A stretch of 32,000 bases of DNA from NCBI GenBank assembly GCA_963704705.1, contig OY969931.1:900001-932000 (forward strand). The letters are read 5' to 3'. The translations under genes were made by a program, and so were the position numbers. Below the pieces are notes generated by a model. That model was not told where the DNA came from, did not search any database, and worked only from the letters and a program-made list of their open reading frames with translations. The stretch comes from an uncultured bacterium. Lineage in GTDB: Bacteria; Patescibacteriota; Gracilibacteria; UBA1369; PNNO01. Every line of letters begins with the position of its first letter. Position 1 is the first letter of the stretch. Shown one piece after another: positions 3,125 through 30,394 of this stretch.

Positions 3125-4186
3125 TCAACTGGACTTTTTTAGTTTCTTAAGCCCATAAAAGACAATTATAGAGGCCATAATAACCATTATGAGCCCCATC
3201 ATTATAATAAGGTATAGTTTTTGAGTTGTTCCAAGAAATATCGCGCTTCCTCCAAAAAAAGCACATAATAAATAAATAAGTAAAAGTGCTTTCCTTTCAG
3301 TTAAACCCACTTCAACCAATCTATGATGTAAATGCTTTAAATCACCCTGCATAGGTGATCTTCCCTGAACAATTCTGCGTGTAATAACCCAAAATGCATC
3401 TAAAATCGGGAATCCAAGTACTAAAAAGGCTGTTGCAATCTTTCCGCCGGCAAATATTGCAAAAACTGCTATTAAAAATCCCAAAAACATACTTCCGGTA
3501 TCCCCCATTAGTATTTTTGCGGGATGGAAATCGAAAATCCAGAATACAAATGTCATTGTTGCTACAATAACAGCTAATGTTGCGACAGTACTCTGGTCAA
3601 CTATATTATATTCTCCGATTGATAAAACAAATAAAGTGGCGACAGCAATAAATGAAACTCCGCTAACCAATCCGTTTAATCCGTCTAAAAAATTCATTGT
3701 ATTTACGATCAAAACAATCCAAAAAATTGTAAATAGATCAGCAAGTAATGTGATTGTTAAAGCTGTATCCCCTATTGGAATAGTTAATTTTAATTGATCC
3801 AAAACAATAGGATCTCCCAATGGATTACTAATAGAAGCTATTCCTATACCTGAAATTACAACTGATAATGCGCCTAAAAACTGAATTGCTAATCTTATCC
3901 ATGGATTCAAACCTTTTAAATCATCCAAAAAACTTACTGTCGCAATCATAAATCCCCCAAGCAATACTCCAAATACTCGTGCATCAATCTTAACAAAAAT
4001 TAATGTTGAAACAAAAAATACAATAATGAATATTAATCCGCCATAATAAGGTATGGGTTTTCTTTTCAATCCATATTTTTTCGGACGATCCATCAAGCCC
4101 CATTTTGGAAAGAATTTAAGCGCCAGAAGCACTAAAATTAGAGTTAAAACAAATGAGAATATTGCTGGAGGAATATATTGGATCAT
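3125..4186 (-). CDS. Polyprenyl-phosphate sugar-phosphate transferase, GT4 MraY/WecA superfamily (WecA/TagO-like)
   Basis: Polytopic membrane protein with NTMNFLDGLNGL and MGDTGSMFLGF motifs. The C-terminal DLKHLHHRL resembles the WecA/TagO type more than the MraY PIHHHFE type. Confidence 0.65.
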   Translation of the reverse strand: MIQYIPPAIFSFVLTLILVLLALKFFPKWGLMDRPKKYGLKRKPIPYYGGLIFIIVFFVSTLIFVKIDARVFGVLLGGFMIATVSFLDDLKGLNPWIRLAIQFLGALSVVISGIGIASISNPLGDPIVLDQLKLTIPIGDTALTITLLADLFTIFWIVLIVNTMNFLDGLNGLVSGVSFIAVATLFVLSIGEYNIVDQSTVATLAVIVATMTFVFWIFDFHPAKILMGDTGSMFLGFLIAVFAIFAGGKIATAFLVLGFPILDAFWVITRRIVQGRSPMQGDLKHLHHRLVEVGLTERKALLLIYLLCAFFGGSAIFLGTTQKLYLIIMMGLIMVIMASIIVFYGLKKLKKSS

Positions 4187-6339: not shown

Positions 6340-6703
6340 TTTTAATATCTTGTTTAATTTGTAATTGCAGGTCTTCTTTACTTTTGAATTCTCTCACATC
6401 ACGGATTTTTTTCAATGTTTTAAATTTTACTTCTTTATTATTGATACTTTTATTAAAATTTAATAAATGAATCTCGCAAAAAATTTTCTTATTATCATTA
6501 GTGCCGATTGATTTAGGACCTATATGCATTACTCCAATATAATGTTCCCCGTCAATTTTAACTTCGCAACTGTAAACACCATACTTTATATCTTTTGGAA
6601 CATCTTTTAAATTAATAGTAGGAAAATCAATCAGCCTTCCTATTCCGGCACCTTTTTCAATAACAGATTTATACCAAATATCATTCATTTTTTGATAATG
6701 CAA
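6323..6703 (-). CDS. Stand-alone riboflavin kinase domain protein
   Basis: GIGRLIDFPTINL, GVYSCEV, YIGVMHIGPK, EIHLLNF and KIRDVREFKSKEDLQLQIKQD follow the RibF C-terminal (riboflavin kinase) pattern. 126 aa. Overlaps both neighbours. Confidence 0.6.
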   Translation of the reverse strand: MHYQKMNDIWYKSVIEKGAGIGRLIDFPTINLKDVPKDIKYGVYSCEVKIDGEHYIGVMHIGPKSIGTNDNKKIFCEIHLLNFNKSINNKEVKFKTLKKIRDVREFKSKEDLQLQIKQDIKNAKFP

Positions 6704-8072
6704 AATTGACTCCTATTATAAGCCAGAATATTAATGACAAATCGTTTTTCCAGTAAGTAACATCTATTAAACCATGTATCAATAAATAACTGAGCATAAT
6801 TATTACAGCAATCGCTATATTTTTTTCTTCACCGGGCTTAATTTTTCTGTATTTTTTAAATGCAAAAACCACTATCCATATAAAAGACACAATACCTAAA
6901 AGACCAGTATTAAGCCATGTTTCCATGTACAAATTATGCGAATGTAACCTTGTCGGTTCCAAAGGCGGATGTCCTAGAATTTCTTCTGCTCTATATGAAT
7001 AATTTGGCTGAAATTGACCCAGACCAATACCTAACAGCGGGTTTTCTTTTAATAAAGTAAAACCTACCTGCCAAATTTCAAGTCGTGTAGAAATTGAAGT
7101 ATGTTCATCAATTCTTACTAAATTCTGAAACTTTTCAATATTTAAAGATGCAGTTAATGTTCCTGCCAAAGTAACAAATAAAATAATGAAAATTATAATT
7201 TTATTTAAGAACTTTTTAACCAAGAATTCACCTGTGGTAATTCTTGTATAAATAACAAATATAAAAATTGCTATAAACGCTCCCAAAAGCCCTCCGTAAG
7301 ATTGCGAAAGCACCAAAACTGCAAATAAAAACGCTGCGAATAATCCTAAAAATATTCTATGTTCAAATGCTGCAAATCTAGTATGCGCAGTTGCAAGTTT
7401 AAGATGCATAAATGTCTGTAAAAATCTTATGGCTGTGAAAATAAATGCCGGAGTTATATACATGGCAAAATAATTTGCTGATTCAAAAGGTCCGGAAACT
7501 CTTTGATCAATAGTAGCATAATGTCCTGATGCAGCCTGATACGAACCCCATAACGCCAATATTAATGCTGAACTCAAGTAAGCATATAATACAAAATTCG
7601 CGTCTCTGGAATCTTTAATTGTGACAAATAAAATATAGAAATAAATAAGGGGTATTATTACCCAGCTTTTTAATATTCCCAATGCATGCATAGCATCATT
7701 ACCCTGTACAATCAAAGCTGAAATCACACTTGCAATTAAAAACAAAACAATTGGGAAAAATGGTGACTTCAAAAAATCCTTAATTTCCCATTTTGCAGGC
7801 AAAAATTTGAGTTTTATAATATGCAGAATTTTATGAAAAAATCCCTTTGATAAAGCTTCACTATGACCAATTAATAAGAAATAAAAAACCGGTATTGCTG
7901 AAATTATTATTATTGCCTCAACAAAATATATAGGTATTCCAAATATATTTATTTCAAATAGATATAATGGAAAAAATAACGGAATTAAAAGTATTGAAAC
8001 CCTTAAATTTTTATAAACAAGCAATGCCCAAGCAACTAAAAGGATTATATAAATAATATATTCAAACGGCAT
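6681..8072 (-). CDS. O-antigen ligase / Wzy_C-like polytopic membrane protein
   Basis: More than 10 hydrophobic helices. A large loop carries RLHSHNLYMETWLNTGLLG, the H.HN.y...G..G pattern typical of the O-antigen ligase family. Confidence 0.55.
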   Translation of the reverse strand: MPFEYIIYIILLVAWALLVYKNLRVSILLIPLFFPLYLFEINIFGIPIYFVEAIIIISAIPVFYFLLIGHSEALSKGFFHKILHIIKLKFLPAKWEIKDFLKSPFFPIVLFLIASVISALIVQGNDAMHALGILKSWVIIPLIYFYILFVTIKDSRDANFVLYAYLSSALILALWGSYQAASGHYATIDQRVSGPFESANYFAMYITPAFIFTAIRFLQTFMHLKLATAHTRFAAFEHRIFLGLFAAFLFAVLVLSQSYGGLLGAFIAIFIFVIYTRITTGEFLVKKFLNKIIIFIILFVTLAGTLTASLNIEKFQNLVRIDEHTSISTRLEIWQVGFTLLKENPLLGIGLGQFQPNYSYRAEEILGHPPLEPTRLHSHNLYMETWLNTGLLGIVSFIWIVVFAFKKYRKIKPGEEKNIAIAVIIMLSYLLIHGLIDVTYWKNDLSLIFWLIIGVNFALSKNE

Positions 8073-8698: not shown

Positions 8699-9462
<764 letters not shown>

Positions 9463-9492: not shown

Positions 9493-12400
9493 ATGAAAAA
9501 TAGAAATTTACTCAAATTTTTTAATTATTTCGCATTAGAACAGCGAAATTTGTTCTTATGTGAAAGCAAACTTGCATTTAAAAATCCTAAGGCGGGAGTA
9601 AGTGCAAGCGCTGAAAGATTATCAGCAACTGAAAAGAAAGAACTTCAAAATAAGATTGAATTACAGAATAAACAAATACAGGCAAATGAGAAAAAACTAG
9701 AAGAATTTAATAAGATGCTTGATAAATTTTTTGTGAATAAAAGAACATTTGAAGTAAAAAATATTACAAATACAGCTGTTGTGCTTGAAGAGTTGATGGT
9801 TAATTCATCTGATTCCAGTTTATCGAAAGATAAGAACAGACTTGGTTATTTAAGAATGATGGCTAAAAATTTCAAATCTGCAATTCAACCACATGAGGCT
9901 GAATTAAAAAAACATCAACCTTTGAAAATAACTGTAAATCCGGGTGGAGTTATAGATTTTGCTGATTCAAAAAATCACAGATTACTAACAATCGATCTGA
10001 AAAAAGATTCATTTTATGCAGTATCAGTTGAAAATCTTAAGAGAAATATCGCAAATTTAAAAGAAAGAATCAAAGGGAAAAAAGAAGCTGTTGTAAGCCG
10101 CACACGCGAACAACATGTTTCGTATCGTGAAAATCTTGATTTGAAATCAAAATTTGGAAACTTACATGATGCGATTAAAGATTCTCCAAAACTTAAAGGC
10201 AAAGTTAAAGTTGTTCAAAACGGTGATTTCCAGGTTGTTAAATTCCTTGGAAAAAACAAAAAAGAAATTAAGAAAAATGAGTTGGCACTTAAAATTGAAG
10301 ACATTTACAACTTAAGCCTCGTAAACAGTTATCCTGATTCTGTTTTAAGAATTCAGGTTACAAACCCATACCAAGGGACTTATAAAGCAACTTATAACCC
10401 TCAGCGGGGCTCATTTTACATTGATGGCACAACTGAAAGAGCAAAAATTTATAATAACGGAAAAATTAAAGTTCTTGAATTTAGAGTTGTTCCAAAAAAA
10501 CCAAGATCAACAAAAGCAGCAATGAGCGGAGTTAAACCTGCTGAATCAAAGGCGGCTCAGGAAAAAGCAAAAAATGAAGCCTACGAGCAAAGGGAATTTG
10601 AAAAAGATCAAACAAAAGATTACTTATTCGACAAATACTACAAATATATTTTCAAAAAGGACCGTTTTGGCGGACATAAATTACTTCAATCAAAAGAAGA
10701 TTTTAAAAACTGGGGTAGATTATCTCATGTTTTAGGCCCGATTCTTGCTCAACCTCCATTCAACATAAGAAGATCATCATCAGAGCAAAAAAAATATATG
10801 GAGCTTGTAATTCAGGGAACCGGATTTTGGGATCCGAACTGGGAAATACAAGGTAAAGATTTCTTTAAATACGGAGGAATCCAATACAAAGGCGGATATG
10901 ATAAATTTGTTGAAGACTATGAAAAATTAACAAAAAAATACGATAAACTTGAGAAAGAAGGAAAAACTCTATCAGAAAAAGAACTGGAACAGCTAACAAA
11001 ACTCGAAGATATAGCAGTTGGAATCGCAAGAGTTTATGAAGCTCTTCAAACAATGAAACCATTAAAGGCTGATCAGGAATCTGAGAAAGAAAGACTGGAC
11101 AGAACAGTTCTGTTAAATGTACCTAAAGCAAACGAAACTGAATTAAAAGAAGTAAAATCAAATAGATATTTGAATTATTATTTGCCTTTATTGACTCATG
11201 AAAAAGAAACCACTTCTCATCAGGTAAATATTCTTGTTGGGTACTCAACAAACAAAAAACTTGTTCAATTAGTGCAACAGGCGATCAATTCAATTCCAAA
11301 AGGAATGATTAAAGAAGAGGTTTTATGGCAATATAAAATGAATCCTACAAAACTTCTGTTCTTAACATTTGGATTCGATTCATTGGTTGCTAAAGGCGCA
11401 ATTAAAAAAATTGACGATAAAAGATTTGTGCTTACCCAGACTCCTACAAATGCAAACTGGGCAATTGCGGCTTTAAAAATGCAGGGAGCTTCAAAAAACC
11501 CTGAATCAATGCAAAGCTGGGAAAAAGTAAGAGGTAAAGTTGATGCTCATCACAAAGCAGCAAACTTTATTAAAGCAATCTTTGGAGACAAAGAAACAAG
11601 TGTAAAAAATAATTTAAGAAGCAGATGGTCACGATTATGGCATTGGGAATGGGCAGATAAAAAATACGTGAGCATGGAAAATCTTGCTCAGGTTAAAACC
11701 TATGGTAAGAATGATTTCAATTTAGAAGCTGTTGAAAAACGCGGTTATTTGGATATGAAAGGCAAAGTTGCTGAAAGAGCCGGAGAAACCGGAATGTACA
11801 GAATTCCTGAAAAAAATCATGGCGCATTAATTAAAATGACAAATGATTATCTTGCAAAAGGTATTCAGATGACACTCGCAAATGCACCAAAAGGAAAAAG
11901 AAATGAAATTTTAAAAAACCTTACCAAAAAATTCGGAATTAATATTGAATTCGGAAAAGATGACGGAAAAATTGCAGCAGATATAGTTAAATTAATTGGT
12001 GTAAAAGGCTTAAATACTTCTGAACTTACTCCTGATAAAATCAAATTTATCAGACTTGGATTTTTGGAAGAAAGATACTTAAAAGCAGTTGAAAGTAAAG
12101 ATATGACAGATGAATACTTCTCTGCTTCACCTGAAATCAGAAAAATTCAGGACAAACTATATAAACAAGGTATGGCTTTAACTGAATTACCAAGAGTTGA
12201 AGCTGATATACATGCAGGATTAGCAGTGCTTGTTAAAAGCAGAGAAATAGTTGGTCCGGGCGGATTCGCTGGCTTTACTCTTAGATATAAAGCATTAAAC
12301 GGACATGAACTTTACACAACTGTTGGTCTTGGAGGATTACAATCCGGACTTACTGTATATGCAGCATTAGGCGCAAAAGTAAAATTAAGCGAAACATGGG

Positions 12401-15045
12401 ATTTATATATGGACGCAGGCGCAGCTGTTGGCACAGGAGGTGTCTCAGGAGGCGGAGTAGTAAGAATTGAAACAGGATTTACTCCAAAATCAGCAAACAG
12501 ATTTGGTTTGGGAGTTGGTGCAGGTGCAAGTATGGGTGGTGTTGGAATTTCATTATTGGCTTATTGGAGATATGACACTGATAAAGCCCTCGCAGAACAA
12601 ATAAACGAAGCAATGAAAAAATTCAAAGATATCGACGAAGAACCAAACTGGGAAAAGAAAGTTGAATTAATAAGAAAACATCCGCATCCAAGTATGAAAC
12701 AATTGGTTGCATATGCAGATAGATTATTCAAAGCTTCAGGAAAAGAATGCCCTCCAAAAATTCTTTACTTCTTATATAAAAGAACTAAAGGTAAAATCGA
12801 AAATGGGGTAAGATTAGACCAAAAACTTCCTGCAATAATTGGAGCAGGTGTTGGAGTTGGATTAACTCCTGTAGGAATTGGCGCAGGTCTTTATGTAACT
12901 TTCAAAATTCCTTGGACTGAAGAAGTTGTTGCTGTTAGAAGTCCAGTTCGAGGTTTTGACAGATACACAATGGAAAAAGAAGCTGAAGCAGATCTTAGTA
13001 AAGAATTAAAAACGCAGGTTACTTTAATTAAAGATTTTGAATTAAAAGGTGAAAATGCTTTTCTTTTTCATGATTCACAACTTGGAGGCAAAGGTTTGGC
13101 CAGAGTTGGTACTCTTCAAAGCAGCCAGATGGAAGAACTTTCAGCTGATTCAAGCTTTGAACAGATCAAAAAAATAATGGCAAGACTCAACATTGATGCA
13201 AAACTTGTTCCAAGAGATGCCAAAGATAAAAGTAAAGGTTACTACATACAAATTACACCATTAGATATAGAAGGTGGTAATGTTGAACTCCAGATTGACC
13301 CTGAACTTAGAAGCAAAGGACTTATTTTGGATAATCAAAGTACACCTCAAAGAATTTTATTAACTGCAAGTGCTGTTAAAGCATTGATGGTTACAAGAAA
13401 AAGAATTAAGTTCCCTTTCCAGTCACAAGGTGCGCTTAATTTGGATATTATTACATTTAAAACTGATACTGACAGACACACTCCAGAAATCAGAGAAGAA
13501 TCTGTACAGTATATATATAAAAGACAGGGTGAAAGATACCAGGTTGTTAACGGTGAGAATTCAAGACGTATTCCAAAAGACCTTAGAAACGTTATGAGCC
13601 TTGCGGAATTCCGAGGAAGCAGCAGAAAATTTGAAAAATTCGATAATGTACAACTAATTAATTATAGAAGATACAGAGAAGCTACCCAGTCTATGGACAG
13701 TGCTCTTCGGGTTCTTTCATCAAAAGAATTTGCTTTAAATCCAGGGAACACTCCACATTTAAATAAATTCGCAAGAAGATGGTACAGCTTAAATCAAAAT
13801 TACTTCTTACGAAAAATTATTGATATGAGAAAACCTGAAAGCGAAGACAGAATTAAAACACTTTTGTTTAATAAACTGGTAAAAGATTATGAAAGTTACA
13901 GAGCAAATATTCCTGGCACAAAACCATTAAGCCAGTATGAACAAAATATGCTCTATGCAATGCTTCTTGATAGATCATTCTTAAAAATTTCAAAAGAACC
14001 AACAAGAAGTATGCCAAAAGAACGTATTGAAAGAGCCTTGGATATCAGAAAAAGTTTATTTAGAAAATATTTAAATACATATATTAAAAAATGGATAGCT
14101 AAATATCCTAATGAATGGAATGAAATTAAAAAAGCTGATCCAGGCATAACTCCAGCTGCAGTAGCTAATCTTATTGCACTTGCAATGCCAAAGGATTACG
14201 CACACATGAAAGAAATGCTTCAGGAACCTACTCAGATTACTAGAGACATGAAATTCCTTTCTTACACTCAAAAATTAAGAAGTGAATCAATGCCTTCAGC
14301 TTATGGTGCTGCAAGCCCTGAGCCAATCAGAAAAAACTTCTTTAAAATGTTCGGGGTTACAAGATTTAATTTAAGTTCTAATCTTGATAAACGAAAACAG
14401 GCAGTAGCACGAGTTATTTTGAATCTTCTTTCACCATTACGTATGAGTGAACTTCAAAATAATAAAGAAAGAGTTGAGTTTTTGGATTCAGAATTACCTT
14501 TGATGCTTATATCTTTATATGATAAATCAAAAGGTATTTCTCCAATGATTGAAGTTCTTGGAATGGAAAATTTTGAAAACATGACAAAACTTTACAGTGC
14601 ACTTCGAAAAGAAAAAGATCCTCAAAAAGCAGCTGAACTATTAAAGAACAGTGCTATTAAAAAATCATTCGATGGATTTAGAGAAATGGTATTAAAAGTA
14701 CGAAACGCACAGCTTAGCGGGAAAAATTCAGCTGATTATAAAGGATTCACATTCCACTTCGACACTGAAGTAATGGCCGGCCCATACTTAAAATGTGCTA
14801 ACGGTACAATGGCTGTAAGACAAAGATTCAGAATTACAACAAAGAAAAGCTTGAGAGTACCTTGGACAGGTGCAAAAGCCGAAAGAGCAGTTGTTGTTAA
14901 AGGCCGATACAAGAAAGAAGCTGCATACCTTACACTTGCAGGAGGGTTCTTCTATAAGCCGGAAGTTAAACCTGAAAAACCTTATAACCCACCTAGCAGG
15001 CATGATGAGCCTGAAAAACCGTATACACCGCCTAGCAGGCATTAA
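9493..15045 (+). CDS. Giant orphan protein (1850 aa): Lys-rich and coiled-coil-rich, no signal peptide, central Gly-zipper/beta-strand-like module, C-terminal Pro-rich tandem ending in PSRH
   Basis: Uninterrupted 5.5-kb ORF. I recognise no catalytic motif. Only 3 Cys. Gly/Ala-rich hydrophobic block at residues ~904-1028 and 1112-1141. The C-terminus is ...KPEKPYNPPSRHDEPEKPYTPPSRH*. Confidence 0.8.
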   Translation: MKNRNLLKFFNYFALEQRNLFLCESKLAFKNPKAGVSASAERLSATEKKELQNKIELQNKQIQANEKKLEEFNKMLDKFFVNKRTFEVKNITNTAVVLEELMVNSSDSSLSKDKNRLGYLRMMAKNFKSAIQPHEAELKKHQPLKITVNPGGVIDFADSKNHRLLTIDLKKDSFYAVSVENLKRNIANLKERIKGKKEAVVSRTREQHVSYRENLDLKSKFGNLHDAIKDSPKLKGKVKVVQNGDFQVVKFLGKNKKEIKKNELALKIEDIYNLSLVNSYPDSVLRIQVTNPYQGTYKATYNPQRGSFYIDGTTERAKIYNNGKIKVLEFRVVPKKPRSTKAAMSGVKPAESKAAQEKAKNEAYEQREFEKDQTKDYLFDKYYKYIFKKDRFGGHKLLQSKEDFKNWGRLSHVLGPILAQPPFNIRRSSSEQKKYMELVIQGTGFWDPNWEIQGKDFFKYGGIQYKGGYDKFVEDYEKLTKKYDKLEKEGKTLSEKELEQLTKLEDIAVGIARVYEALQTMKPLKADQESEKERLDRTVLLNVPKANETELKEVKSNRYLNYYLPLLTHEKETTSHQVNILVGYSTNKKLVQLVQQAINSIPKGMIKEEVLWQYKMNPTKLLFLTFGFDSLVAKGAIKKIDDKRFVLTQTPTNANWAIAALKMQGASKNPESMQSWEKVRGKVDAHHKAANFIKAIFGDKETSVKNNLRSRWSRLWHWEWADKKYVSMENLAQVKTYGKNDFNLEAVEKRGYLDMKGKVAERAGETGMYRIPEKNHGALIKMTNDYLAKGIQMTLANAPKGKRNEILKNLTKKFGINIEFGKDDGKIAADIVKLIGVKGLNTSELTPDKIKFIRLGFLEERYLKAVESKDMTDEYFSASPEIRKIQDKLYKQGMALTELPRVEADIHAGLAVLVKSREIVGPGGFAGFTLRYKALNGHELYTTVGLGGLQSGLTVYAALGAKVKLSETWDLYMDAGAAVGTGGVSGGGVVRIETGFTPKSANRFGLGVGAGASMGGVGISLLAYWRYDTDKALAEQINEAMKKFKDIDEEPNWEKKVELIRKHPHPSMKQLVAYADRLFKASGKECPPKILYFLYKRTKGKIENGVRLDQKLPAIIGAGVGVGLTPVGIGAGLYVTFKIPWTEEVVAVRSPVRGFDRYTMEKEAEADLSKELKTQVTLIKDFELKGENAFLFHDSQLGGKGLARVGTLQSSQMEELSADSSFEQIKKIMARLNIDAKLVPRDAKDKSKGYYIQITPLDIEGGNVELQIDPELRSKGLILDNQSTPQRILLTASAVKALMVTRKRIKFPFQSQGALNLDIITFKTDTDRHTPEIREESVQYIYKRQGERYQVVNGENSRRIPKDLRNVMSLAEFRGSSRKFEKFDNVQLINYRRYREATQSMDSALRVLSSKEFALNPGNTPHLNKFARRWYSLNQNYFLRKIIDMRKPESEDRIKTLLFNKLVKDYESYRANIPGTKPLSQYEQNMLYAMLLDRSFLKISKEPTRSMPKERIERALDIRKSLFRKYLNTYIKKWIAKYPNEWNEIKKADPGITPAAVANLIALAMPKDYAHMKEMLQEPTQITRDMKFLSYTQKLRSESMPSAYGAASPEPIRKNFFKMFGVTRFNLSSNLDKRKQAVARVILNLLSPLRMSELQNNKERVEFLDSELPLMLISLYDKSKGISPMIEVLGMENFENMTKLYSALRKEKDPQKAAELLKNSAIKKSFDGFREMVLKVRNAQLSGKNSADYKGFTFHFDTEVMAGPYLKCANGTMAVRQRFRITTKKSLRVPWTGAKAERAVVVKGRYKKEAAYLTLAGGFFYKPEVKPEKPYNPPSRHDEPEKPYTPPSRH
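14971..15042 (+). repeat. Two 33-nt direct repeats separated by 6 nt, encoding PEKPY(N/T)PPSRH x2 at the C-terminus of the giant ORF
   Basis: cctgaaaaaccttataacccacctagcaggcat (14971-15003) and cctgaaaaaccgtatacaccgcctagcaggcat (15010-15042), separated by gatgag and followed by the TAA stop. Confidence 0.9.
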
Positions 15046-15077
15046 TTTATCATTAATAAAAATTAACAATATTAAAA

Positions 15078-15575
15078 ATGAAAAACAAAAATGGCAAAAC
15101 AAAAGGCCTATTCATAGCAGTCGCAGTACTTGTAGTACTAATATTTGCAGGCAGTCTGCTATATCTAAACTCACTTAAACCAATTGTTAAAATTGTAAGT
15201 GATAAACCTGCATATTTTCATACTGATGATCCTCAAATCGAAATTATGCTGCTTAATGCTAAAAAAGCTGATTCTGGATCAATCAGAATTAGTTATGATG
15301 ATAACATCCTGAATTTGGGAGCAAATGAATTGAGCCAAGGTGTAACAATGGATGAACTTCAAAACAACCTAATTTTTAATCTTTCAGAGGATTATTTTAG
15401 TAATAAAACTGACAGTGTTGCTAAATTGACTTTCAATTTTACTGGGGATGCAGGAAAAACCGAAGTAACTGTAGATGAAAATGAATCATTTTTAAATATA
15501 AAAGGTGAACAAATGCCAATCTCAAAAGCTGAAAACGCTTCATTTACAATTGGCGTAGCCCCATCTCGTCATTAA
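15078..15575 (+). CDS. Small N-terminally membrane-anchored protein with a cohesin-like beta-sandwich pattern, ending in PSRH
   Basis: The basic N-terminus MKNKNGKTKG is followed by one hydrophobic helix, LFIAVAVLVVLIFAGSLLYL. IRISYDDNILNL, VAKLTFNFTGDAGKTEVTV and ASFTIGVAP resemble cohesin-domain strand patterns, but the match is weak. The C-terminus is ...GVAPSRH*. It lies 32 nt after the giant ORF. Confidence 0.6.
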   Translation: MKNKNGKTKGLFIAVAVLVVLIFAGSLLYLNSLKPIVKIVSDKPAYFHTDDPQIEIMLLNAKKADSGSIRISYDDNILNLGANELSQGVTMDELQNNLIFNLSEDYFSNKTDSVAKLTFNFTGDAGKTEVTVDENESFLNIKGEQMPISKAENASFTIGVAPSRH

Positions 15576-19135: not shown

Positions 19136-19166
19136 GCAAATTGCTAGCTAAATGCTAGCTTTTTGC
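19136..19166 (+). terminator. Intrinsic-terminator-like hairpin after the three-gene block
   Basis: GCAAA-tt-GCTAGC-taaat-GCTAGC-tt-TTTGC, with a T5 run on the 3' side, 45 nt after the stop at 19091. The stem is short and AT-containing, so its strength is uncertain. Confidence 0.4.
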
Positions 19167-22702: not shown

Positions 22703-23038
22703 TTAGAAATAAAACGGCAAAGCAATTAAAACACCTATTATCTCAATTACTAATGAAGCAAAAATTAGAGTTTTTTTATTATTTTCAATTAATCCAACAA
22801 TGCTTAATATTAAAATTGTTACAGGGAGGATCCAAAATCCGATAATCCAGGATACAAATATAGGAATTGAAGTTAATAAAGAAAAAAATATGTTTATAAA
22901 TCCATTACTTATATTACTTAAAAATTTTAATTTATCTATTACCAGTAAAGGTATTAAAAATCTTACAGAAATTATAAATATCAAAAACAATAATGATAAA
23001 AAGAATGATATTTGCCCGTAAATTTGTTTCTTTTTCAA
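22703..23038 (-). CDS. Hypothetical small membrane protein (about 3 TM helices)
   Basis: 111-aa ORF that is almost entirely hydrophobic helices. No recognisable motif. Confidence 0.45.
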   Translation of the reverse strand: MKKKQIYGQISFFLSLLFLIFIISVRFLIPLLVIDKLKFLSNISNGFINIFFSLLTSIPIFVSWIIGFWILPVTILILSIVGLIENNKKTLIFASLVIEIIGVLIALPFYF

Positions 23039-23070
23039 ATTAATTTCTATTTAGACAAAATAAAAAATTA

Positions 23071-23424
23071 TTAAACTTCTATTTCCCTCCAAACCAATTC
23101 AATTGCATTGAAATAATCCTTTGTAAATTCAGCAGCTTTCTCAACAGAAAAAGGTTTGCAAGTATAACAATCAACAGTAAACAAAGGTGGGTTTGTGGGA
23201 TAAGAATAAAAAGTTGCACCTGAAGATTTCCAGTGGATCCAACCACCATAACCCATATCATGAGCGCTATATGCATGTGGTTCAGAGAGTTTATCCATAT
23301 TACAAACATTTGCCAGTTCATTTAGATACTCTTTTATCTTTTCTGGTTCAACTATCTTGTCAGTGGTTCCTTCAATTATTACTCTTTGACGTACAAGATC
23401 TGGAGCAAGATTTTTCCATTCCAT
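23071..23424 (-). CDS. Small protein with an S-adenosylmethionine decarboxylase (SpeH-type, pyruvoyl) related pattern
   Basis: GYGGWIHWKSSGATFYSYPTNPPLFTVDCYTCKPFSVEKAAEF is colinear with the SpeH core G.SGvvvisESHltIHTWPEygyaaiDvfTCG. The ES cleavage site and the His are not conserved. 117 aa. Confidence 0.35.
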   Translation of the reverse strand: MEWKNLAPDLVRQRVIIEGTTDKIVEPEKIKEYLNELANVCNMDKLSEPHAYSAHDMGYGGWIHWKSSGATFYSYPTNPPLFTVDCYTCKPFSVEKAAEFTKDYFNAIELVWREIEV

Positions 23425-23481
23425 AGAATTAAGTTATAAGTTAATTGTTCGTATGCATGCCCTACTTTCAAAATCAAATCC

Positions 23482-23727
23482 TTATTTATTTACTTTACCC
23501 TTTGAAGCATAATCACAAGCATACATACCGATATGTTCAGAAATAGCTGATTCTCCTGGTTTAACTTTCTCATAGGTTCCTTGCTTAATAATTATACAAT
23601 ATAAATCTTCAAGATAAGAAAAACCACTTTCCGATCGTGGTATAAACGGTTTAAGATCGATCAAAATTAATATGAATACGATGATAAAAATAATTTTTAC
23701 GATCAAATTTTTTCTTGAAGATTTCAT
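23482..23727 (-). CDS. Hypothetical small signal-anchored or secreted protein
   Basis: 81 aa. N-terminus MKSSRKNLIVKIIFIIVFILILI followed by a soluble tail with 2 Cys. Confidence 0.4.
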   Translation of the reverse strand: MKSSRKNLIVKIIFIIVFILILIDLKPFIPRSESGFSYLEDLYCIIIKQGTYEKVKPGESAISEHIGMYACDYASKGKVNK

Positions 23728-23776
23728 ATGAATTTTTTATAAGTATGGCTCACCTCCAAAACCCTCAATACTTATC

Positions 23777-24046
23777 CTAAGCTGATTTTAATTGAAATAA
23801 CTTAACAATTCCAGAAATTATTGAGAGCAGGACAAACCATGCCAGGGTCCAGATCAAAAAATCGATTATTAATCCAATATAAATAACTTCCGGACTTACA
23901 GGAGCCATGCTTACCGTGCTTAGTTTATAAAAATAGAATGGAAAGCCTCTGAGCATAGATTCAAATCCGTCTCTAATATAAAAATACGTCAGGAATGTGG
24001 TTATTAATCCCAATACGGGGCTGGCTATAAAAATTAATTTCTTCAT
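23777..24046 (-). CDS. Hypothetical small membrane protein (2-3 TM helices)
   Basis: 89-aa hydrophobic ORF with no motif. Confidence 0.4.
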   Translation of the reverse strand: MKKLIFIASPVLGLITTFLTYFYIRDGFESMLRGFPFYFYKLSTVSMAPVSPEVIYIGLIIDFLIWTLAWFVLLSIISGIVKLFQLKSA

Positions 24047-24063
24047 GCAAATAGAGTTAAAGT

Positions 24064-24264
24064 TTAAATTTGTGCAATTATTTCAATTCTCAAATAAATA
24101 TCTATCCTTTCTTGGTTTTGATAAATCAAATGATATTTATCATTTTTACCGCTTAGGCCAAGTTCCTTTGCGGATATAACTTTATATCCTTTTTCACGAA
24201 TAAATTCAATTAAATCCTCTTCTATATTTTCATCTGCATAAAATTTACACCTTCCAAATTTCAT
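24064..24264 (-). pseudogene. Truncated DUF5615-type PIN-like toxin remnant
   Basis: MKFGRCKFYADENIEEDLIEFIREKGYKVISAKELGLSGKNDKYHLIYQNQERI matches the N-terminal half of the family pattern (M.fLADENi...lv..Lr..GhdV....e.gl.G..D..il..A..e.R). The ORF ends after 66 aa, before the expected T.D.DF segment. There is no antitoxin ORF next to it. Confidence 0.4.
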
Positions 24265-24297
24265 AATTAATATTTACAATTTCAGCTAACTTACATT

Positions 24298-25737
24298 CTA
24301 CCTCCCCTCCTCATACTTCGCCCCCACCTTCAATATCAAATCCTCACTAAACTGCGGCCCTATAATTTGCATGCCTATCGGCAAACCTTTTTCGGCAGTA
24401 ACACCGCATGGCACATTCAATGCCGGCACTCCCGCTATATTAACCGGAACAGTGAATGCGTCCGCAAGGTACATTTGTAAGGGGTCGTCGGATTTTTCGC
24501 CGATTTTAAATGGAGGGAATGGTGAAGTCGGCCCGATCAATACATCAACGCGATTAAATAATTCATTCATTTCATTGATAATAAGCGTTCGCACTTTCTG
24601 CGCTTTTTTGTAGTAGGCGTCATAATAACCGGCGCTAAGCACGTAGGTTCCCATCATTATCCTTCTTTTAATTTCGTCTCCGAATCCTTCGCCTCTGCTG
24701 TTAAAATAATATTCAATCAAGTCTTCACCTTCTTTTTCAGGTTTTGTTCCGAAGCGAATAGAATCAAACCTCGCAAGGTTTGCGCTTAGTTCGGCAGGCA
24801 TAACAATATAATAAACCGCGATTGCGTATTTTATTGATGGAAAGCTTACTTCAACAACTTGCGCTCCTTTTGATTCCAGTACTTTAATTGCGTTTTTTAC
24901 GCTGTCGCTCACTTCAGGGTCTACATTTTTATCAAAAAATTCTTTTGGCACACCTATTTTTAATCCTTTTATATCACCTTCAATCAGTTTTGAGTATTCA
25001 GGCACTTCTTTTGGTGGAGTTGTTGAGTCCAGAGGGTCGGTTCCTGCTATTTTTTCCAATACAAATGCTGCGTCTTTAACATTTTTTGCAAAAGGACCGA
25101 TTGTATCGAGTGAAGATGCCATTGCTGTTACTCCGCTGCGCGAAACACGGCCGTATGTAACCTTAAGTCCAACCACTCCGCAAAACGATGCAGGCTGTCT
25201 TATTGAGCCTCCGGTGTCGGTTCCGATTGAAAATAGCGCACTGTTTGTTGCAACCGCAACTGCGCTGCCGCCGGAAGAGCCTCCCGGAACATATTCCGGG
25301 TCAACAGGGTTTTTAGTAGGGCCAAAATAACTGTATTCGGTTGATGCTCCGCACGCGAATTCATCCAGATTTGCCTTTCCAATCATTACTGCGCCCGCTT
25401 CTTTAAGTTTTCTAACAGCGGTTGCGTCGTATGGCGGAACAAAATCTTTAAGCATTTTAGATGCGCATGTTGTTTTAACTCCTTTTGTATTTAATAAATC
25501 TTTAATCGCGCATGGAATTCCTTCCAAAACTCCGATCTCAGTGCCTTTTGAAATTTTTTCATCAACTTTAGCTGCCACATTAAGGGCTTCTTCTTCGGTT
25601 AATGTAATTAAAAAATTAAGCTTTCTGTTTTCAGCTTTTGCATGATCCAAATGAGCCTGTGTAAGTTCTGCGCACGAAAACTCTTTATTTTTTAAACCGT
25701 TATGTGCGCTCTCAATTGTTAATTTCGATAAATCCAT
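24298..25737 (-). CDS. gatA: Glutamyl-tRNA(Gln)/aspartyl-tRNA(Asn) amidotransferase subunit A
   Basis: Amidase signature GGSSGGSAVAVA...GTDTGGSIRQPASFCGVVGLKVTYGRVSR. 479 aa, directly downstream of gatC. Confidence 0.92.
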   Translation of the reverse strand: MDLSKLTIESAHNGLKNKEFSCAELTQAHLDHAKAENRKLNFLITLTEEEALNVAAKVDEKISKGTEIGVLEGIPCAIKDLLNTKGVKTTCASKMLKDFVPPYDATAVRKLKEAGAVMIGKANLDEFACGASTEYSYFGPTKNPVDPEYVPGGSSGGSAVAVATNSALFSIGTDTGGSIRQPASFCGVVGLKVTYGRVSRSGVTAMASSLDTIGPFAKNVKDAAFVLEKIAGTDPLDSTTPPKEVPEYSKLIEGDIKGLKIGVPKEFFDKNVDPEVSDSVKNAIKVLESKGAQVVEVSFPSIKYAIAVYYIVMPAELSANLARFDSIRFGTKPEKEGEDLIEYYFNSRGEGFGDEIKRRIMMGTYVLSAGYYDAYYKKAQKVRTLIINEMNELFNRVDVLIGPTSPFPPFKIGEKSDDPLQMYLADAFTVPVNIAGVPALNVPCGVTAEKGLPIGMQIIGPQFSEDLILKVGAKYEEGR

Positions 25738-27879: not shown

Positions 27880-28497
27880 ATGCGAAGCCAAAAGATTAAA
27901 GGGATCATTATAAGCAAAAGATCCTTTGGTGAAAAAGATTACTCATTAACTATTTTAACGCCTGATTCAGGTAAAATTTTTGCAACTGTAAAAGGCGCGC
28001 GTGAAATAAAAAGCAAGTTTACAGGCCATGTTGATTTAATGAATGTCTGCGATTTTGAATTGTATGTGGGACCCAATTATACATATGTAAGCGAATGCCA
28101 GATCAATAAAAATTTTTCAAGCTTCAGTGATGATTTAAAAAAATTCTATTACGCTTCACTTGTTTCAAAAATATTAAATCGCTACACCACTGAAAATGAG
28201 ATCTCACATGAAATTTATGAACTTGCTTTAGACACATTTTTTTCAATTGAAAAATATAATAAAGAAGAATTGATTTATGAAGGTTTTAAAATCAAAGCCT
28301 GCCAAATACTCGGCTTAATGCCTGATATAAACGGAATAGAAAACATTGAACTGGAACATTTGAATCAAAATATCAAAGATATTATTTATTTTATGCACAC
28401 AAATAATTACGAAGAAATAAATAATCTCAAAGTTGATAAAAGTAATCTGGAAAAACTAAAACAAACAACTCAAAAAATGCTTGAACATACTTTTTAA
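27880..28497 (+). CDS. recO: DNA repair protein RecO
   Basis: The N-terminal OB-fold pattern KGIIISKRSFGEKDYSLTILTPDSGKIFATVKGAR and the ~205-aa size fit RecO. I prefer ATG 27880 to the track's TTG at 27874. Confidence 0.7.
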   Translation: MRSQKIKGIIISKRSFGEKDYSLTILTPDSGKIFATVKGAREIKSKFTGHVDLMNVCDFELYVGPNYTYVSECQINKNFSSFSDDLKKFYYASLVSKILNRYTTENEISHEIYELALDTFFSIEKYNKEELIYEGFKIKACQILGLMPDINGIENIELEHLNQNIKDIIYFMHTNNYEEINNLKVDKSNLEKLKQTTQKMLEHTF

Positions 28498-29744
28498 AGC
28501 CAGTTTGCTTCAATGTGGCGGCTGCTGTCACTTAATTTAAGGATTCTGCAGTCTTCTTTATGGATACTTAAAGAATTGCCCCTTGTAACATAAGCTTTAA
28601 TCGCGTTGTTTAACTTTGGTTTGCAGCATTGTGCCAGCCTTATTGGTAAACCTTTTTCATTTCCAACTGTTATCCTGCTTTCAATATTGCCCTTAAACTC
28701 AGCTTTTATCTTGGCACCCTTTGTTACTCTCCTCTTTTTTCCCAAAACTTCGTTATATGAATAGACTTTCCATACCAGTTGTGATGGAAGCAAGGTTCCG
28801 CTTCCAACCAGTCTTAGCAGTTCTTCACGTTTTTTATAATTTAACTCCTGACCCATATAATTTTTTAAAATTGTTAACTTTGGATCAAGCTGCGGCTTGC
28901 CAATTTCGCTTAATTTTTTATTAATTAAGTCTTTTCCGGTTTTAAAGTTTGTCTCCTGATCAAAACTATTATAAAAAGTTTTAATTTTAGTTTTTGCACC
29001 TGTTGTTTTAACAAAACTAAGCCATTCAAGTTTTGGTTTACTGTTTGATTTAGTAATAATTTCTACAACATCACCGTTATGCAGCTCATTATCCAAAGGA
29101 ATAATCTTACCGTTAACTTTAGCCATCACACATTTATTTCCAAGGTCTGTATGAACCGCAAATGCAAAATCAATAGGTGTTGAGCCGGCAGGCAAATCTT
29201 TAACATCACCCTGCGGTGTGAGAATAAAGATTCTGTCCTGAAAAATATCAACTTTTATCTCACTAATCATTTCATTTTCCTGGCTTATTTTAGCTAAATT
29301 TTTAATCCAGTCGATTTGAGACTGAACAATTTCATCTTTACCCTTTGTTTCTTTATAAAGCCAGTGCGAAGCAAAACCAAATTCAGCATCTTCATGCATA
29401 TTTTCACTTCTTATTTGAATTTCAACAGGTTCTTTAAATGAATGCGGAGCAATACCAACAACAGTTGTATGCAGACTTTTATATCCATTCGGTTTTGGGA
29501 ATCCGATATAATCCTTAAACCTTCCGGGAATCGGCTTCCATTTATTATGAATAAGCCCAATCAACTCATAAAGCTTTGAAACATTTTCATACGGTAAAAT
29601 AATCCTGATTGCAAAAATATCATGAATTTCTTCAATAGAAGTTTTACCTTTTTTCTTTAATTTTTTATAAATACTGAAAGCGTTTTTAAGTCTGCCCGAA
29701 ACATTGGCTTCAAAACCGTTTTCATTCAAATATTCTTTAACCAC
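28494..29744 (-). CDS. rel: RelA/SpoT-family (p)ppGpp synthetase, C-terminal segment (synthetase + TGS + Cys-rich zinc-finger domain), separated from its N-terminal domain by a frameshift
   Basis: GRLKNAFSIYKKL, DIFAIRIIL, FKDYIGFPKPNGYKSLHTTV and EIQIRSENMHEDAEFGFASHWLYKE mark the synthetase. IFILTPQGDVKDLPAGSTPIDFAFAVH marks TGS. LAQCCKP...SIHKEDC is the conserved Cys motif. No ACT/RRM domain. The track's start is a GTG. Confidence 0.85.
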   Translation of the reverse strand: MVKEYLNENGFEANVSGRLKNAFSIYKKLKKKGKTSIEEIHDIFAIRIILPYENVSKLYELIGLIHNKWKPIPGRFKDYIGFPKPNGYKSLHTTVVGIAPHSFKEPVEIQIRSENMHEDAEFGFASHWLYKETKGKDEIVQSQIDWIKNLAKISQENEMISEIKVDIFQDRIFILTPQGDVKDLPAGSTPIDFAFAVHTDLGNKCVMAKVNGKIIPLDNELHNGDVVEIITKSNSKPKLEWLSFVKTTGAKTKIKTFYNSFDQETNFKTGKDLINKKLSEIGKPQLDPKLTILKNYMGQELNYKKREELLRLVGSGTLLPSQLVWKVYSYNEVLGKKRRVTKGAKIKAEFKGNIESRITVGNEKGLPIRLAQCCKPKLNNAIKAYVTRGNSLSIHKEDCRILKLSDSSRHIEANWL

Positions 29745-29749
29745 GCGTG

Positions 29750-30394
29750 TTATTTCTTCAATAACATTCTTTTTTTCTTACCCAAAACTTTTAATTCTTC
29801 CTGAATATTTTTATATTCGTATTCTTTTAAATACTTAAAACATAAATCTTCAAGTATCGACCTTATTCTGTAAACTCCCAATCGTGCGGCAATTGGAACA
29901 TATATATCCATTGTCTCCTGCGCAATCAATTTTCTATCTTCTGTTGGCAATGATTCCAGGGTCTGCAGATTATGGAGCCTGTCAGCTAATTTAATTAAAA
30001 CAACACGTAAATCTTTTGCCATAACCAGCGATAATTTTCTCAAAGTTTCAAGTTCGTTCTGTTTTGCTTCTCTAATTACACTCATCTTTTCATATGCTGA
30101 AATCAAATTCCCGATATCTTTACCGAATTCTTTTGCAACATCAGCTGATTTTACACCTGTATAACTGTGCAATTCATGCAGCAAAGCAGCAATTATCGTA
30201 TCTTCATCAACCTTTTGGGTAGTTAAAATCTTCGCGGTTTCAGTTGCGTGGGATAATACGCTTCCGCCAGAACGTCTTTCGTGTCCTTCATATTTTTTCT
30301 TAGCATAATTATAAGCCTGCTCTAACCGTTTTTCGTTCAAACCGCCATTATATTCTTTAATCCTTTTTATTAATGATTTTAATTCTTTATCCAC
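29750..30394 (-). CDS. rel: RelA/SpoT-family N-terminal HD (hydrolase-like) domain segment, with degenerate catalytic motifs
   Basis: RRSGGSVLSHATETAKIL, AALLHELHSYTG, VMAKDLRVVLIKLADRLHNLQTL and DIYVPIAARLG are colinear with the Rel hydrolase domain. It ends 6 nt before the next segment, in another frame. The start is a GTG. Confidence 0.8.
   Translation of the reverse strand: MDKELKSLIKRIKEYNGGLNEKRLEQAYNYAKKKYEGHERRSGGSVLSHATETAKILTTQKVDEDTIIAALLHELHSYTGVKSADVAKEFGKDIGNLISAYEKMSVIREAKQNELETLRKLSLVMAKDLRVVLIKLADRLHNLQTLESLPTEDRKLIAQETMDIYVPIAARLGVYRIRSILEDLCFKYLKEYEYKNIQEELKVLGKKKRMLLKK

Follow-up and report, generated by a model that had tools for sequence, protein, structure and literature searches.

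The window analysed here is a stretch of 32,000 nucleotides (nt) from an uncultured bacterium (contig OY969931.1 of assembly GCA_963704705.1, positions 900,001 to 932,000), and the subject of this work is an operon on its plus strand that encodes, in this order, a giant protein, a small protein and a Cys-rich protein, with intergenic gaps of 32 and 21 nt. The first two of these proteins end in the same residues, and we have compared their C-termini across orthologous loci. The features concerned are the following, with lengths of proteins in amino acids (aa).

9493-15045, plus strand: gene of the giant protein, 1850 aa (open reading frame (ORF) and translation)
14971-15003 and 15010-15042, plus strand: two direct repeats of 33 nt each at the 3' end of the giant gene (repeat search)
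15031-15042, plus strand: terminal Pro-Ser-Arg-His codons of the giant gene, cct agc agg cat, then taa
15078-15575, plus strand: gene of the small protein, 165 aa, ending GVAPSRH before the stop (ORF and translation)
15561-15572, plus strand: terminal Pro-Ser-Arg-His codons of the small gene, cca tct cgt cat, then taa
15597-19091, plus strand: third gene, secreted Cys-rich protein of 1164 aa (ORF; signal peptide, about 30 invariant Cys)

The giant protein finishes in a Pro-rich disordered tail, PEKPYNPPSRHDEPEKPYTPPSRH followed by the stop, of which the last residues are PPSRH. The two 33-nt repeats beneath this tail are offset by 39 nt, share 88% identity and encode PEKPY[N/T]PPSRH, and only the second copy carries the free C-terminus. 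The first-pass annotation of this DNA had pointed to the PSRH end shared by the two neighbours in differing codons, and to the agc agg cat within both repeats. All of these coordinates and codons check out, the Pro, Ser and Arg codons each differing between the two genes. Its remark that the two proteins are otherwise dissimilar was borne out as well, since a profile-profile alignment (hhalign) of the C-terminal 330 aa of the giant protein against the small-protein family gives a probability of 0.08%, that is, no detectable homology. A repeat search of the window reported no direct DNA repeat joining the two gene ends. Among the 27 ORFs tabulated in the window, none of the other 25 ends in RH, and the sole other one with a terminal His is glutamine synthetase (...LSKH). 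By a rough hand estimate, an identical terminal tetrapeptide would arise by chance in one given adjacent pair with a probability of about 1e-5, which scales to a few times 1e-4 per window and about 1e-2 per genome of some 1300 genes. The PSRH match of the window is hence suggestive of function but not decisive, and its significance comes from the comparison of orthologous loci, not from the window alone.

Both gene ends were available for 18 syntenic loci, which amount to 16 lineages once the three loci ending in RH (the window, L001 and L026) are merged. The last four residues of the two proteins are as follows.

Window: giant end PSRH, small end PSRH
L001: giant end PSRH, small end PARH
L026: giant end HSRH, small end PARH
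L002: giant end PSRN, small end PTRN
L005: giant end GDSI, small end IDSI
L017: giant end TGNL, small end EGNL
L014: giant end TDVV, small end TENV
L009: giant end DSSV, small end PFGV
L008: giant end GSQL, small end YEEL
L016: giant end DSTY, small end FDSF
L006: giant end DTDF, small end SIDF
L022: giant end SNDF, small end AVDF
L020: giant end ASDF, small end ALDF
L021: giant end NTNF, small end ALNF
L018: giant end SGEL, small end SLEL
L025: giant end SDEL, small end AFEL
L013: giant end SNDL, small end PLEL
L024: giant end HPEM, small end SLEI

The last residue is the same in both proteins in 14 of the 16 lineages, where shuffled pairings give a mean of 3.3, and the matched residue takes six states across lineages (H, N, I, F, L and V). 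The two mismatches are conservative: Y/F in L016 (TY/SF) and M/I in L024 (EM/EI). Position -2 is identical in 11 lineages (2.6 expected by shuffling) and co-varies too, as seen in RH/RH, RN/RN, DF/DF, NF/NF, EL/EL, SI/SI and NL/NL, and the whole terminal dipeptide is identical in 10 (1.4 expected). Not one of 200,000 shuffled pairings equalled the observed counts for the last residue, for -2 or for the dipeptide. The signal remains when the H/N clade is removed, and the match of the last residue holds inside the L006-like sub-clade alone (7/8, p=0.004). On a neighbour-joining tree of the small-protein domain, sister lineages switch jointly, as L020 (DF/DF) versus L025 (EL/EL), or L013 versus L021. 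The match between the ends is real and statistically robust.

What is conserved is the agreement of the two ends, and not PSRH itself. In the close relatives L001 and L026, the match between giant and small protein is limited to the last two residues (PSRH/PARH and HSRH/PARH), and orthologues at 64% identity or below end otherwise (PSRN/PTRN, DSI/DSI, DF/DF, EL/EL and so on). The first-pass annotation had taken PSRH as a selected tag, and of this proposal the selection on the peptide stands while the conserved PSRH does not: the motif is missing in orthologues, an outcome that it had itself named as refuting and that formally applies, yet their ends co-vary, which supports a stronger claim than the original one. 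The scan that it had proposed for the proteome was run on the ORFs flanking the loci (about 20 per locus). None of them carries the dipeptide RH (window trio), RN (L002) or DF (L006), and where flanking ORFs were tested for the last residue only (L008, L009 and L013), three chance matches were found. It had also offered the terminal His as a possible metal ligand, an idea that finds its support in the two His-terminal proteins of the window. We regard such a ligand common to both proteins as scarcely credible, in view of the change from His to Asn in both L002 proteins and of the mostly hydrophobic last residue elsewhere (Ile, Phe, Leu or Val in other lineages).

A match of this kind between adjacent genes could in principle arise with no function at all, through repeated gene conversion or slippage at the neighbouring 3' ends, or through chance combined with the similar composition of disordered tails. 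The tail of the giant gene is indeed visibly prone to tandem duplication, both tails are of low complexity, and in L018 the two genes have their last 9 nt in common. However, most loci encode the matched residues by different synonymous codons, and the last codons of giant and small gene read cac/cat, aac/aat, att/ata, ttc/ttt, tta/ctt, gtc/gta or gta/gtt. The lineages ending in F retain ttc in the giant gene and ttt in the small one, and in L021 the codon at -2 has changed from gat to aat in both genes, 3 nt away from this retained ttc/ttt difference, a change that no conversion tract could explain. Besides, the shuffling tests exclude chance, no DNA repeat joins the two ends, and the residue at -3 continues to differ, the small protein having a hydrophobic and the giant one a polar residue there. 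Gene conversion was rejected on the codon differences and on the lack of a repeat linking the ends, and an explanation without function, already largely refuted, seems to us very improbable. Because the codons of matched residues usually differ, in the window and in other loci, the comparison indicates that the end match results from selection on the peptide and not from gene conversion, much as the first-pass annotation had argued against a DNA duplication artefact. This constraint falls on the free-end copy only, because in L002 the internal repeat copy has diverged (PPDRG) while the terminal one (PPSRN) agrees with the PTRN of the small protein.

The two tails also share a common anatomy. 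In each, the last beta-strand is directly followed by a proline-rich element, which reads [AIP]-P-x-[RD] in the small protein and PP-[SH]-[RD]-[HDG], often in tandem copies, in the giant one. Beyond it, most lineages have a spacer of 10-40 residues that is acidic, rich in Ser/Thr/Gly, and terminates in [DEN]-hydrophobic. In the window clade (window, L001, L026 and L002), the distal part of the tail is absent in both genes and the proximal element constitutes the end. The giant protein of the L004/L007 lineage retains a long tail (...STEI), although in L004 this protein is as close to that of the window as the L002 one is (68% identity). Within the small-protein family the long acidic distal tail has been lost independently at least four times among the family representatives (short-tail lineages P0024, P0026, P0028, P0031 and P0032), leaving forms that end in ...QER, ...GRR, ...KIK, ...IKQ or ...GTQ (P0021-P0036 set). 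Within the tail of the small proteins of the L006-like clade, the residue at -2 goes with the one at -1 ([D/N]-F versus E-[L/I]), which fits a pocket of fixed size that would read both side chains.

It could be argued that the tails simply touch each other, or that they occupy equivalent side-by-side sites in a hetero-complex, so that the symmetry of packing would keep them alike with no third party reading them. The co-variation data apply equally here, and both tails follow a final beta-strand of the form E-x-A-x-x-T-[LI], a likeness that is not significant in hhalign. But heterotypic contacts normally favour complementary residues, not identical ones, and the tails are predicted to be disordered, all of which makes direct contact between the tails quite improbable in our opinion.

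None of the three proteins of the operon has an above-threshold match in Pfam, NCBIfam, PHROGs, PADLOC or the sequences of the PDB. The small protein can nonetheless be given a probable identity through its structure. Its N-terminus is strongly positive and contains one hydrophobic helix (hydropathy peak at aa 10-28), and its AlphaFold2 (AF2) model, with a predicted local distance difference test score (pLDDT) of 82.7, shows a helix at aa 5-32, a beta-sandwich at aa 36-159 and a disordered tail. The layout would be that of an N-terminal membrane anchor, a cohesin fold and a tail of 5-6 residues (APSRH). A cohesin is a jelly-roll of nine beta-strands and about 140 aa, and the modelled strands agree with this fold. 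In a Foldseek search against the PDB the top 48 matches are all cohesin or cohesin-like modules, the best with E=1.1e-7, probability 1.0 and a template modelling score (TM) of about 0.6. The window protein has no Pfam match and lies below the gathering score of Pfam Cohesin (PF00963), and a divergent member of its family, P0041, reaches 19.8 bits, under the cutoff of 24.1. At E=2.8e-18 the family profile matches P0037, in which Pfam finds 14 Cohesin domains. Because of these fold matches and of the remote sequence homology, the small protein is predicted to be a cohesin module that is anchored in the membrane and whose C-terminus lies outside the cell, and the cohesin-like domain mentioned in the first-pass annotation is thereby confirmed at the level of the modelled fold. 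Inspection of the aligned N-termini led us to reject a pilin-type or lipoprotein signal, as they lack a conserved Gly at -1, a Glu at +5 and a Cys. Neither Dockerin_1 nor any other dockerin was found in the giant protein, the third protein or the other scanned ORFs of the window. The family is rare, with only about 20 representatives among 1.84 billion proteins in a profile search, and a literature search for cohesins in Peregrinibacteria or in the candidate phyla radiation (CPR) returned nothing relevant.

The giant protein has a conserved N-terminus and no signal peptide. Around aa 924-1138 (window 12262-12906) it contains Gly-rich amphipathic strands with a sub-threshold match to Pfam OMP_b-brl (E=0.0016). 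The AF2 model of aa 860-1850 reaches a pLDDT of only 53.7 and forms 7+2 long strands in this stretch. Foldseek finds nothing at E<=1e-3 for this model, and its weak matches are membrane beta-barrels (KdgM porin, TM 0.61, target-normalised). A porin-like barrel is therefore a lead only, and porin-like strands are unexpected in a protein without signal peptide and in a CPR bacterium.

The third protein ends in ...VSQQVF, a C-terminus of its own that is conserved and does not co-vary with the giant and small ends. At about columns 600-700 of its alignment there is a mosaic block, where the lineages divide into two types of sequence at odds with the small-protein tree, a pattern suggestive of module exchange. 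A search of the third and giant proteins for columns that change with the terminal residue (F versus L/I) drew on too few sequences, and its result is confounded by relatedness and by this mosaic block. Large Cys-rich extracellular proteins have been reported for Peribacteria, with a proposed role in attachment (PMC4736985), and the third protein fits this type.

The make-up of the operon gives room to an explanation in which both tails carry one signal that an enzyme or a machine recognises, for instance a C-terminal signal for export by a non-Sec route, or a recognition or degradation tag for a tail-specific (PDZ-type) protease that would process both proteins. We see this as the main rival to recognition by a common binding partner, although in itself an unlikely one. 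It stays alive because the giant protein, lacking a signal peptide, leaves the side of the membrane uncertain: it has no N-terminal signal, yet it shows porin-like strands and is encoded beside two exported proteins. In most lineages the tails are disordered and acidic or Ser/Thr rich, with a [DEN]-hydrophobic end, a composition that type I and type IV secretion signals and class III PDZ ligands also have, and the P-x-R/D element conserved in both proteins could be a cleavage site. Yet no gene for an exporter, an ABC transporter or a protease lies in the operon or in the window, and the signal-anchor of the small protein makes a second export signal needless. Furthermore, secretion signals tolerate variation, and we know of none that demands a residue-exact match between substrates; the window clade, for its part, has swapped [DE]-hydrophobic for R-H or R-N in both proteins.

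The operon in which the matched ends occur is itself conserved. The giant, small and Cys-rich trio constitutes a conserved operon of Peregrinibacteria, members of the CPR. Syntenic orthologues of the giant protein span 31-88% identity, and the tight operon is kept across that range. The order tpiA - giant - small - Cys-rich - holA holds where the identity of the giant protein is only 31-32%, and because it does, we conclude that the operon is old and vertically inherited and not a mobile insertion. A scan of viral contigs returned no relative, and the flanks consist of housekeeping genes (rpoD, dnaG, truB, a Mur ligase, tpiA, hpf, holA, glnA, gatA/C, ftsX, recO and rel). The scan of the plus strand found no terminator-like site between the three genes, and the operon is bordered by two putative signals.

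9434-9462, plus strand: promoter-like site 5' of the giant gene (consensus match only)
19143-19159, plus strand: terminator-like hairpin 3' of the third gene, the only one on this strand (sequence scan)

Some observations concern the neighbourhood of the operon. Upstream, on the opposite strand, lie a Wzy_C gene of the O-antigen ligase or O-oligosaccharyltransferase type (6681-8072, minus strand) and a gene for a GT4-family glycosyl transferase (Pfam Glycos_transf_4; 3125-4186, minus strand), an arrangement that is syntenic wherever the loci cover the upstream flank. The Ser/Thr-rich and Pro-rich tails could be targets of glycosylation. Downstream, the stretch between a TrmB-type regulator and gatA (22703-24046, minus strand) looks like a local variable spot within an otherwise syntenic region. 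Its small ORFs vary by lineage: the window has an AdoMetDC-like ORF at 23071-23424, L001 holds a gene with a Phage_lambda_Ea47 domain in the corresponding spot (23263-25224), and the L002 counterpart spans 23133-24330. Finally, rel/spoT appears split in the window (28494-30394, minus strand) into an ORF with the HD domain (29750-30394) and one with RelA_SpoT and TGS domains (28494-29744), the two being in different frames and separated by 5 nt; the cause could be a frameshift, an error of sequencing or a true split of the gene.

How could two unrelated proteins keep the same last residues while these residues change from lineage to lineage? We propose, tentatively and with a confidence a little short of even, that the C-termini of the giant and small proteins are matched short linear docking motifs that are read by one common partner. 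We infer such a reader because the co-variation is residue-exact, has switched repeatedly and is confined to the last two residues of the free ends, and a docking role comes naturally because a cohesin fold, known for docking proteins, is encoded in the same operon. Reading of a free end has known examples in PDZ domains, in the partners of the SSB tip and in encapsulin targeting peptides. Each motif would have two parts, a proximal proline-rich P-[PA]-x-[RD] beside the folded domain and a free C-terminal dipeptide with its carboxylate, the latter borne in most lineages on the acidic Ser/Thr-rich spacer. The pocket of a single partner would take the last one or two side chains of both ends, and when this pocket drifts between species, both tails would be forced to follow, so that the ends stay alike. 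In the window clade, the distal spacer would have been deleted from both genes, the proximal motif becoming the end (P-x-R-H, or P-x-R-N in L002). Such a system would be expected to bind the giant protein and the small anchor into a single assembly of the cell envelope. Which protein reads the tails is a matter of speculation. By economy, the likeliest candidates would be found in the operon itself: the 1164-aa Cys-rich protein, or the cohesin module acting in trans.

Several observations weigh against recognition by a common partner. Neither the three proteins nor any other ORF of the window (27 scanned) contains a recognisable PDZ, TPR or peptidase domain. No column of the cohesin domain tracks the switch between F and L/I in the L006-like clade, in a comparison of 9 sequences with low power, and the AF2 model of the small protein, computed as a monomer, leaves the tail disordered and undocked in cis. 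Since the giant protein lacks a signal peptide, its tail may not reach the side of the membrane where the tail of the small protein lies. The repeated losses of the distal tail in the small-protein family, at least four, imply that this part of the motif is dispensable, and the systematic difference at -3 implies that the two ligands are equivalent over their last two residues only.

A more specific form of the common-partner proposal, which we consider rather doubtful, is that the product of one of the operon genes binds the terminal two residues, with the carboxylate, of a giant porin-like protein and of its membrane anchor, the dipeptide serving as a lineage-specific assembly code in a previously undescribed type of envelope assembly. 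The reader would then be the Cys-rich secreted protein, or else a cohesin module with free C-terminal peptides, and not dockerins, as its ligands, and to this part we give the same low credence.

The proposed docking has to be contrasted with systems that are better known. The closest in terms of fold is the cohesin-dockerin pair of cellulosomes. As there, a protein with a cohesin fold and remote homology to Pfam Cohesin is held at the cell surface, in the manner of anchoring scaffoldins, and its presumed ligand is a C-terminal appendage of another protein, tandemly duplicated like the segments of a dockerin. It differs in that the operon proteins and the scanned ORFs contain no Ca-binding dockerin of roughly 60-70 aa, the candidate ligand being a free-ended, Pro-rich peptide 5-40 residues long; in that the cohesin protein itself bears the same tail; and in that the window protein falls under the Pfam threshold.

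In terms of recognition, the nearest parallels are PDZ-type domains and the partners of the C-terminal tip of SSB (DDDIPF), which bind C-terminal peptides. A reader that binds the carboxylate and the last one to three side chains would account for the constraint being limited to the terminal copy. As in a PDZ-type ligand, which has a free C-terminus and whose last and -2 residues determine specificity, only positions -1 and -2 co-vary, and they do so in the terminal repeat copy only. Most lineages resemble class III PDZ ligands and the SSB tip in that [DEN]-hydrophobic comes at the end of a disordered linker that is acidic or Pro-rich. In contrast, neither a PDZ domain nor another known reader was found among the 27 ORFs, the window clade ends in R-H or R-N, and the tail of the small protein is predicted to be extracytoplasmic.

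The peptides that load cargo into encapsulins, or that mediate encapsulation in bacterial microcompartments (BMC), are short terminal peptides on the products of neighbouring genes, attached through a flexible linker, that dock to a common partner and co-evolve with it. Here too, unrelated neighbours bear the same short terminal peptide on a flexible linker. However, there is no gene for an HK97-fold or BMC shell protein among the ORFs of the window, the motif is of about two residues with no amphipathic helix, and one of its bearers is a membrane-anchored surface module.

The tripartite sorting signals (LPXTG/sortase, PEP-CTERM, GlyGly-CTERM and PGF-CTERM) and the C-terminal domain of the type IX secretion system (T9SS) are likewise C-terminal and common to neighbouring surface proteins, but here the motif is the very end, with no hydrophobic helix or basic tail after it, and no NCBIfam model matched at E<=1. 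The T9SS domain is a beta-sandwich of 80-100 aa, whereas these tails are disordered, measure only 5-40 aa and match neither Pfam nor NCBIfam. The first-pass annotation had excluded a resemblance to LPXTG, PEP-CTERM, GlyGly-CTERM and T9SS signals on the lack of a following helix, and the ends and both scans agree with it. As for type I secretion, whose substrates commonly carry RTX repeats, neither ABC transporter nor membrane-fusion protein genes are present in the operon or the window.

Terminal peptides shared by neighbouring proteins for docking or targeting are an already known kind of device. A two-residue, lineage-variable code at the free ends of a giant protein and a cohesin-module protein, in a core operon of the CPR, found no precedent in our search of the literature and libraries, and there is a real chance that the matched ends represent a new mode of recognition.

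All three proteins belong to the unannotated dark matter, and the operon that encodes them is a core one, inherited vertically, in a class of CPR bacteria thought to live attached to other cells. Their co-varying ends are a rare clue, of a purely evolutionary nature, that a giant protein and a cohesin module at the surface act through one partner, and they provide an experimental handle in the form of a two-residue free C-terminal motif with natural specificity variants. The same kind of co-variation between the terminal residues of neighbouring genes could be scanned for genome-wide to uncover hidden interaction motifs. If it is true that the cohesin module or the Cys-rich surface protein reads free C-termini, this would be a new recognition mode in the assembly of bacterial surfaces.

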